A DNA stretch of 32,000 nt from Candidatus Altimarinota bacterium (GTDB lineage Bacteria; Patescibacteriota; Gracilibacteria; UBA1369), in assembly GCA_041659405.1 (NCBI GenBank), contig JBAZYK010000004.1, positions 1 through 32,000 on the forward strand, given 5' to 3'. A model generated the notes under the pieces. That model saw only the letters and a program-made list of their open reading frames with translations, did not search any database and was not told the DNA's origin. Positions 2,578 to 2,799 of this stretch are shown in pieces. The position numbers were made by a program, and so were the translations under genes. Position 1 is the stretch's first letter, and each line of letters starts with the position of its first letter.

Positions 2578-2654
2578 AAATTAATTAGAACTCCACTGCC
2601 CATATTATCACAGGCCAAATCAATGACAAAGCATTAAAACCATGCTTAAATAGA

Positions 2655-2682
2655 CGGGAAATATAACTTCCCCTTCGAGCAC
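2655..2682. repeat. Partial inverted copy of the hairpin element (3' half only, reverse orientation)
   Basis: GGGAAATATAACTTCCCCTTCGAGCAC is the reverse complement of the copy-1 3' half (GTGCTCGAAGGGGAAGTTATACTTTCC) apart from small differences. The preceding ATGCTTAAATAGACGGGAA duplicates ATGCTTAAATGGGAA at 2708. Confidence 0.7.
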
Positions 2683-2716
2683 CGCCGCAAATAAAAAAAC
2701 AAAACAAAATGCTTAA

Positions 2717-2799
2717 ATGGGAATGTGTAATTTTGGCTGAGAGCACCTCGCAGGCGTGAGCCGAGAACTGTGCTCGAAGACGAAGTTACACATTCCCAT
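2717..2799. repeat. Long hairpin element, copy 2 (core 2737-2779 identical to 1103-1145), in the divergent promoter region
   Basis: The 43-nt core is identical to copy 1. The outer arms GGGAATGTGTAA / TTACACATTCCC are complementary to each other but differ in sequence from the copy-1 arms. Confidence 0.8.

Follow-up and report, generated by a model that had tools for sequence, protein, structure and literature searches.

Intergenic hairpin repeats beside the DUF881 genes of a Candidatus Peribacteria genome: members of a multi-copy palindromic family, probably REPIN/MITE-like

Genes and hairpins at the locus

The stretch of DNA analysed here (the window, 32,000 nt) belongs to a 1.51-Mb genome in 21 contigs (G000; 40% G+C, 98.5% complete). 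Near its left end a 230-aa gene on the + strand, two DUF881 genes on the - strand and murI on the + strand flank two long hairpins and a hairpin fragment. The order of the genes, with the DUF881 pair facing away from murI, had been proposed in the first-pass annotation and is borne out by the open reading frames and their Pfam labels. The features are as follows.

360-1052, + strand: open reading frame; copy 1 starts 27 nt past its stop
1080-1168, + strand: copy 1, with a type A tip and a 22-bp stem (1080-1101 / 1147-1168)
1102 and 1146, + strand: mismatch A1102·G1146 of copy 1, around the core 1103-1145
1103-1145, + strand: 43-nt core, consisting in order of CU, tandem G·A, GAGCAC helix, tip, GUGCUC, GA and AG
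1169-1840, - strand: DUF881 gene (PF05949), its stop codon (1169-1171) abutting copy 1
1843-2577, - strand: DUF881 gene (PF05949), context between the copies and outside the element
2602-2629, - strand: promoter-like site for the DUF881 genes, TTGTCA-16-TAATAT with TG (consensus match only)
2642-2682, - strand: fragment (half copy), reading GTGCTCGAAGGGGAAGTTATATTTCCC, GTCT and ATTTAAGCAT on the - strand
2710-2806, + strand: copy 2, with a type A tip and an imperfect outer extension
2717-2735 / 2781-2799, + strand: solid 19-bp stem of copy 2
2736 and 2780, + strand: mismatch G2736·A2780 of copy 2, around the core 2737-2779
2816-3628, + strand: murI (glutamate racemase, PF01177), directly downstream of copy 2

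Copy 1 lies in the spacer between convergent genes and copy 2 in a divergent spacer, where it ends 16 nt before the ATG of murI (2816). Both carry the same 43-nt core, CTGAGAGCACCTCGCAGGCGTGAGCCGAGAACTGTGCTCGAAG, and its identity at 1103-1145 and 2737-2779, noticed at first pass, was found again by direct reading and by an independent repeat search. Across 77 nt (1086-1162 versus 2720-2796) the two copies are 88% identical. The arms on either side had been described as different in sequence yet complementary to each other, and this holds, i.e., the stems co-vary around a fixed core; in copy 2, for example, GGGAATGTGTAA (2719-2730) is complementary to TTACACATTCCC (2787-2798). The predicted fold shared by the two copies runs from a long stem to a 1x1 purine·purine mismatch, which is A·G in copy 1 and G·A in copy 2; then come a C-G and a U-A pair, the tandem G·A loop, which is symmetric, the helix GAGCAC/GUGCUC and a tip, here called type A, with the apex GGC-GUGA-GCC predicted to form a GNRA loop. 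Folded as RNA the + strands reach -54.6 kcal/mol (copy 1, z = -8.7) and -48.3 kcal/mol (copy 2, z = -8.5), with 0 of 200 shuffles folding as well, and the - strands fold about 6-7 kcal/mol weaker. On the + strand no U tract follows either hairpin and no terminator-like site was called, and on the - strand a T-rich stretch starts 17 nt after copy 1.

The reverse-oriented half copy reported upstream of copy 2 is real, with a start at 2656 rather than 2655: positions 2656-2682 are 93% complementary to 1136-1162 and include a 21-nt exact match (E = 1.6e-5). Read on the - strand the fragment is a 3' arm plus outer extension, nearest to the arm of copy 1. As the element is palindromic the origin of the fragment is ambiguous, and it might just as well be a 5' arm that has become like a 3' arm. 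The "duplicated leader" described in the same spacer fared less well. Its letters do recur, with ATGCTTAAAT at 2642-2651 and at 2709-2718 (not 2708), but they belong to the imperfect outer portion of the palindrome and do not form a feature of their own: TGCTTAAAT (2710-2718) is the 5' side of the imperfect outer stem of copy 2 and pairs at 7 of 9 positions with ATATAAACA (2798-2806), and the fragment carries ATTTAAGCAT, the perfect 3' version, whose reverse complement gives the occurrence at 2642. The promoter-like site at 2602-2629 separates the fragment from the DUF881 genes, and the two insertions upstream of murI, copy 2 and the fragment, lie beyond it.

The family in the genome, its scaffold and its positions

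Two cores that are 100% identical, 1.6 kb apart and on the same strand could have come from a simple recent local duplication of one hairpin around the DUF881 genes. The genome-wide census of the core that had been suggested at first pass refutes this idea, to which we give virtually no credence. It revealed a third identical core on another contig (C11:46874-46916) with unrelated distal arms, a fourth copy (C7:46392-46472) with the same CTGAGAGCAC...GTGCTCGAAG scaffold and another tip, and about 30 further members. A first covariance model (R1), built on four copies, yielded a dozen further hairpins of 76-81 nt, and tip motifs and an HMM extended the family to 33 full and 2 partial members. 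The first-pass condition for refutation, that no further family members exist, is therefore contradicted by more than 30 of them, all on a common scaffold.

This scaffold consists of a variable stem, a purine-purine mismatch, CU/AG pairs, the tandem G·A loop, a short helix and the tip. The central module, with an inner helix of 5-6 bp and a small tip hairpin, is carried on arms of 19-25 bp, the sequence of which is free provided that the arms pair. Type A tips are a rare variant, limited to the window copies and the C11 copy (3 copies); type B, GGGGTCTTGGGGGGCCC, is found in 2 copies, and type C, CCGGGGTAGGGGCCCTG, in about 27 copies plus two degenerate ones. Ends of the form GTGTTCAG are found in most type C copies and are absent from type A. 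The scaffold comes in two flavours, ..TTCA-CTGA...GAAG-GGGAA.. and ..TTGG-CTGA...GAAG-ACAA.., each of which occurs with different tips, and the tips therefore behave as exchangeable modules. In about six copies (e.g., C3:69572, C5:74657, and C6:76650) the G·A loop has turned into Watson-Crick pairs to give perfect palindromes, and the change falls on either arm, from which it follows that the arms can be equalised at the DNA level. This bears on the earlier proposal that compensating arms imply selection on structure or a MITE-like origin. A MITE-like origin is the best reading, but compensation alone is no proof of selection on an RNA because the perfect palindromes show that equalisation of the arms in DNA is possible. 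At two positions (C6:59000-59137 and C6:77282-77425) a full element is followed by a head-to-tail partial copy that starts at the terminal CTGAATAC.

In an alignment of 26 type C members 97% of the cells are paired, 30 of the 38 pairs change on both sides and double changes occur in 181 cells; none of 500 shuffles reaches any of these measures, and sliding the partner lowers the pairing to 30-57%. The tip and the inner helix are nearly invariant in the alignment. Nearly all type C copies have one and the same 17-nt tip, whereas their arms differ by 15-40%, and since dead neutral copies would not keep identical tips, this hints at a constraint at each locus, i.e., a function for the host. It is conceivable that the element is a structured RNA cassette selected by the host, in which each copy is kept for a function in cis in the transcript and duplication is only the route of spreading; candidate roles are an RNase III-type processing site, an mRNA-stabilising 3'-end hairpin between cistrons and a terminator at convergent sites. 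An RNA cassette would fit the tip and tandem G·A loop, which stay (nearly) invariant from genus to genus and over about 27 copies although the arms drift, and also the folding of the tip on one strand only, be it the GNRA tip of type A or the wobble-paired hairpin of type C, where two wobble pairs are possible on a single strand.

The positions of the copies speak both for and against such a cassette. According to rough gene calls all copies in G000 are intergenic, mostly 10-30 nt from both neighbours: 17 lie sense and 11 antisense between co-directional genes, 4 in divergent and 3 in convergent spacers. The ribosomal-protein cluster on C3 alone has 11 copies (in spacers including tuf|S10, L2|S19, L22|S3, secY|adk, infA|S13, S13|S11, S4|rpoA, and rpoA|L17), and 10 of the 11 are sense to the genes, which speaks for a cassette. 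Against this, 11 of the 28 copies in tandem spacers are antisense to the mRNA, among them both of the copies inside the ATP synthase operon, and there is no bias for the sense orientation in tandem spacers, with 8 sense versus 10 antisense outside the ribosomal cluster. With so many spacers occupied, including those of the ribosomal-protein cluster and the ATP synthase operon, the bracketing of the DUF881 operon by copies 1 and 2, noted at first pass, is most likely incidental, and the two hairpins are probably no dedicated regulators of it. Pairs of copies that flank a gene were also considered as a composite transposon, which was rejected as the flanked genes (Hsp20, FtsH, atp, and yidC/jag) are all housekeeping genes. 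In the ribosomal cluster start codons of ribosomal-protein genes have an A+T-rich leader, ACTAATTAYTAAT(TA..), in front of them (C3:72919-72946 and 73866-73894), and the elements are inserted on its upstream side, after the stop codon of the preceding gene. The leader is also found in G001, a genome of the same genus, in the L2|S19 and L22|S3 spacers, and is therefore native to the genus and lies outside the hairpin element.

The stems are asymmetric with respect to strand. On the tip-sense strand G·T outnumbers A·C by 38 to 6 (7 to 1 in types A and B), although one G·T column is common to 11 copies and the ratio, counted as independent events, is about 16 to 8 and nearer to 2:1; the excess is accordingly suggestive, and inflated by inheritance. 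The ratio of G·T to A·C is 19:1 in copies that are sense to their neighbours and 12:1 in antisense copies, and an equal excess in the two classes means that the asymmetry belongs to the element and not to the mRNA. For an RNA cassette it is unfavourable that the antisense copies keep G·T on the tip-sense strand and not on the strand of the mRNA.

Asymmetry that is independent of gene direction would fit a site that acts in DNA, i.e., a hairpin or cruciform extruded by one strand and bound by a host protein in replication restart or priming, recombination or segregation. In agreement with this the tip-sense strand is the C-rich, lagging-sequence strand in 27 of the 35 copies, including all three of type A; the GC and AT skews are opposite in sign in G000, and the effect of the coding strand was separated out. 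A second hairpin family of the genome (see below) likewise has its core oriented according to the sign of the replication-type GC skew of the contig in all 10 copies, as read by eye. The bias of the first family is, however, not absolute and comes to 17:7 without the ribosomal cluster, the copies of which are not independent. Moreover, the 200 related genomes are without the family or have between 0 and 13 copies, which would be odd for a core chromosomal function, and there is no candidate for the binding protein. A DNA-level site of this kind is therefore considered unlikely.

Empty sites and distribution in relatives

The G001 genome is syntenic with G000 at about 72-76% DNA identity, and it has empty sites at four loci occupied in G000.

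HTH/DUF881 spacer (site of copy 1): in G001 a hairpin GCCTCC-GCCTTA-GGAGGC, then TCTTTTTATTT on the DUF881 strand; in G000 copy 1
DUF881/murI spacer: 85 nt in G001, 236 nt in G000
L2|S19 spacer: 23 nt in G001, 136 nt in G000
L22|S3 spacer: 30 nt in G001, 131 nt in G000

The G001 hairpin at the first of these sites (L032 1447-1464) is a canonical terminator with a T tract on the DUF881 strand. Copy 1 most likely serves the two convergent genes as a 3'-end hairpin where G001 has this terminator, and it may have taken over from a hairpin that terminated the DUF881 and HTH genes in both directions; copy 2, by comparison, would add a long hairpin to the leader region of murI. The family resembles bidirectional intrinsic terminators in this position of copy 1, exactly where G001 has a GC hairpin and T tract, and in the preference of the copies of relatives for convergent spacers. 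It differs from them in a far longer stem, in the conserved internal loop and tip, and in that most copies in G000 lie inside operons. The site of copy 1 speaks for an RNA cassette, whereas the + strands of copies 1 and 2 have no U tract, canonical terminators are present elsewhere in G000 (e.g., C1:96970), and at three of the four loci the G001 site is empty with no replacement. Taken with the antisense copies, this leaves the host-selected RNA cassette as a rather doubtful explanation.

A second covariance model (R2) was run across 150 genomes of the order, and all but one of its matches fell within the taxonomic family to which the window belongs. There are at least 10 copies in G017, 3 in G023 and a single one in each of G031, G030, G014, and G001, as well as one in G085 that has a different, long tip. 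The exact tip 13-mer GGGGTAGGGGCCC was counted 27 times in G000, 13 times in G017, 3 times in G006 and once in each of three further genomes, as opposed to one occurrence of its reversed control in the same 201 genomes. The tip GGGGTAGGGGCCC is conserved across genera, as is the 2x2 G·A loop (G017, G023, G031, G030, G014, G001, and G085). Where the copies of relatives have flanking genes with orthologues in G000 the corresponding G000 sites are empty, i.e., the copies are non-orthologous. Most of them lie, with a rough choice of open reading frames, between convergent genes and near both stops, some with A/T runs, and this arrangement counts in favour of an RNA cassette. In the sole member of G001 (G001:C13:13136-13199) the common tip is reversed relative to the CTGA/GAAG loop, which means that the scaffold can hold the tip either way round.

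Over evolutionary time the family multiplies and changes its positions, and it inserts only between genes. No target-site duplication is readable, the flanks being A+T-rich and the empty sites coming only from the approximately 25% diverged G001 in noisy alignments. From the same noisy alignments, comparison of the arms with native flanks gave a shared TTATACT near the DUF881 stop that is not beyond chance, nor is the resemblance between the G001 terminator and the type A tip.

Beyond the relatives, the exact scaffold pattern had 26 matches in 596 Gb of genomes, which is about the chance expectation, and the flanking arms were present in none of them. One of the matches, in a Jatrophihabitans MAG (about 5757-5822, - strand), consists of tandem 35-nt units with GTGCTCGAAG..CTGAGAGCAC that have no flanking arms and are probably unrelated to the hairpin family. 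The type A tip had no match in JGI metagenome contigs, and the type C tip was found in metagenome and genome collections only on a contig of the same organism and in one unrelated coding sequence of Chitinophagaceae. Strain variants were not found by exact-protein look-up, as the other assemblies are 100% identical. An independent short-read contig from Logan (SRR6484324, 1649 nt) starts and ends inside the two cores of the window (1116-2764), which shows that the repeat breaks de Bruijn assemblies. Both this contig and one from ENA have the sequence, which makes it unlikely that the family is an artefact of assembly or binning; the organism is also present in ENA ERZ27249449.

Comparison with known elements and interpretation

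It was considered whether the hairpins belong to an already described family, i.e., REP/REPIN with RAYT, integron attC, a MITE of the Correia or RPE type, or a known ribozyme or K-turn RNA. The look of a long, multi-copy intergenic hairpin and the conservation of structure beyond sequence are what such a family would present, and the letters CUGA...GAA recall hammerhead and C/D-box motifs. The comparison with Rfam that had been called for at first pass gave, however, no match at gathering score, only models of microRNA hairpins at 17-32 bits against thresholds of 57-140, and no known family came to light there. The phage collection had no match to the hairpins, and the literature search gave nothing on palindromic or hairpin repeats of Peribacteria. 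GTAG is not conserved in the family, since the arms vary and the ends are GTGTTCAG or unique; the boxes RYYYAAC/GTTRRRY are absent from the base of the stem, where GTTCAG/CTGAAC ends match them at 6 of 7 positions at best and stand in the opposite order. A hammerhead reading of CUGA...GAAG was rejected for want of a CUGANGA core and of an Rfam match, and a kink-turn because the tandem G·A pairs lie in a symmetric 2x2 loop with no 3-nt bulge, the 1x1 purine·purine mismatch being two pairs away. Membership in an already described family is thus largely refuted and very improbable, and on the best reading the repeat itself is an undescribed one.

The searches for a mobilising enzyme were similarly negative. 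No gene of six families, Y1/HUH (RAYT, IS200), TnpB, IS110 DEDD, rve, DDE_Tnp_1, and reverse transcriptase, was found in the 98.5%-complete genome by searches in which the controls worked; in particular, a cognate RAYT (Y1/HUH transposase, PF01797) was not found in G000, while control genomes gave matches.

Among known elements, those of the REPIN and REP-BIME kind are mobilised by RAYT (TnpA-REP) Y1 transposases in Pseudomonas and E. coli, and E. coli REPs stabilise the upstream mRNA. The present family resembles them in having tens of intergenic copies, long hairpins built from inverted arms and strand-specific folding, in differing sharply in copy number between relatives, and in often lying at the 3' ends of genes and inside operons. 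It differs from REP sequences in conserving the centre (tip and G·A loop) and leaving the arms free, which is the reverse of the arrangement in REP, and from REPINs in its three interchangeable tips (A, B, and C) on one scaffold and in having neither RAYT nor GTAG. Bacterial MITEs such as Correia, the RPE of Rickettsia and ERIC are likewise small, non-coding and palindromic, vary in presence between relatives and are co-transcribed with their neighbours, as the copies here would be; the Correia elements of Neisseria are substrates of RNase III and capable of terminating transcription. Presence and absence at orthologous sites, as known from MITEs, is seen here in the four empty G001 sites and the non-orthologous copies of relatives. 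In contrast to MITEs, the family has no parent IS and no terminal inverted repeats that are conserved family-wide or shared with a transposase parent (the genes flanked by copies being housekeeping genes), and it is never found inside coding sequence. The attC sites of integrons are recognised as a folded single strand, and they share with the present hairpins a conserved structure of free sequence in which fixed unpaired bases mark one strand. In attC, however, it is the stem base that holds the conserved boxes, and the tip varies, which is the opposite of the family described here, and the copies in G000 are not arrayed as gene cassettes.

Many copies, strictly intergenic positions, empty sites, non-orthologous positions and a patchy copy number all point to small mobile DNA of the REPIN or MITE kind. 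Against it stand the enzyme families that were not found in G000 and the constraint hinted at by the type C tips. Copies 1 and 2 and the C11 copy are considered, as the most probable reading, to be rare type A members of a family of palindromic repeats that are intergenic, non-autonomous and specific to the lineage, in a Candidatus Peribacteria (CPR) genome. The form that is active or recognised may be the single-stranded hairpin of the tip-sense strand, either as ssDNA during copying or as a transcript, and the tip together with the G·A loop may be what a putative protein recognises. Specific recognition of a folded single strand is argued for by the invariance of the tip and by the G·A mismatch, which has been kept although copying from arm to arm would erase it. 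Pairing of the arms could be maintained partly by such copying and partly by selection for folding, and the inserted copies would be transcribed with their neighbours as mRNA hairpins.

It is tempting to go further, and to speculate that a Peribacteria hairpin module, made up of the tip GGGGUAGGGGCCC or an alternative such as type A and of the tandem G·A loop, spreads between genes with no recognisable transposase and is read as a folded single strand by a putative protein; this is a possibility that we hold tentatively and with far less confidence than the REPIN/MITE-like reading itself. If true, this would amount to a new way in which DNA moves, perhaps coupled to the replication fork, or else to a new kind of RNA cassette that binds protein, in bacteria whose genomes are minimal. 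The conservation of tip and G·A loop across genera points to a specific, putative, recognising protein, the discovery of which would bring to light either a mobilisation route or an RNA-protein system that is new. Little mobile DNA is usually ascribed to CPR bacteria, with their tiny genomes, and here a single CPR genome of 1.5 Mb has one hairpin repeat in about 35 copies, besides one or more other hairpin families, with no transposase of the kinds searched for. On the practical side such repeats break short-read assemblies and can be mistaken for riboswitch-like leaders or sRNA genes.

The second hairpin family in G000 is about 140 nt long, with arms such as AGTTTCCGGAGGGAATGG and a core GGCGAC..GCGAGCGCAGCC..GGCGAAGCGTTCGCC, and includes copies at C6:98211-98351, C9:9780-9926, C5:14876-15021, C7:51498-51642, and C10:8034-8174. 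Part of the core of this family shows a weak alignment with the type A core in five copies (0-20 of 300 shuffles), and none in a sixth. The window itself has another hairpin of about 100 nt at 30741-30842, with 46-nt arms and the tip GGGTCTTGTGGGTCCC, which adjoins a tRNA on the - strand (30908-30980) and has a near-twin on contig C9 (about 70125-70230). Finally, a repeat with the palindrome TGTGCACGTGCACA is present in the window as two direct copies, 29936-30027 and 30554-30645, which are 618 nt apart, and as an inverted partial copy 5.5 kb away at 24368-24417.
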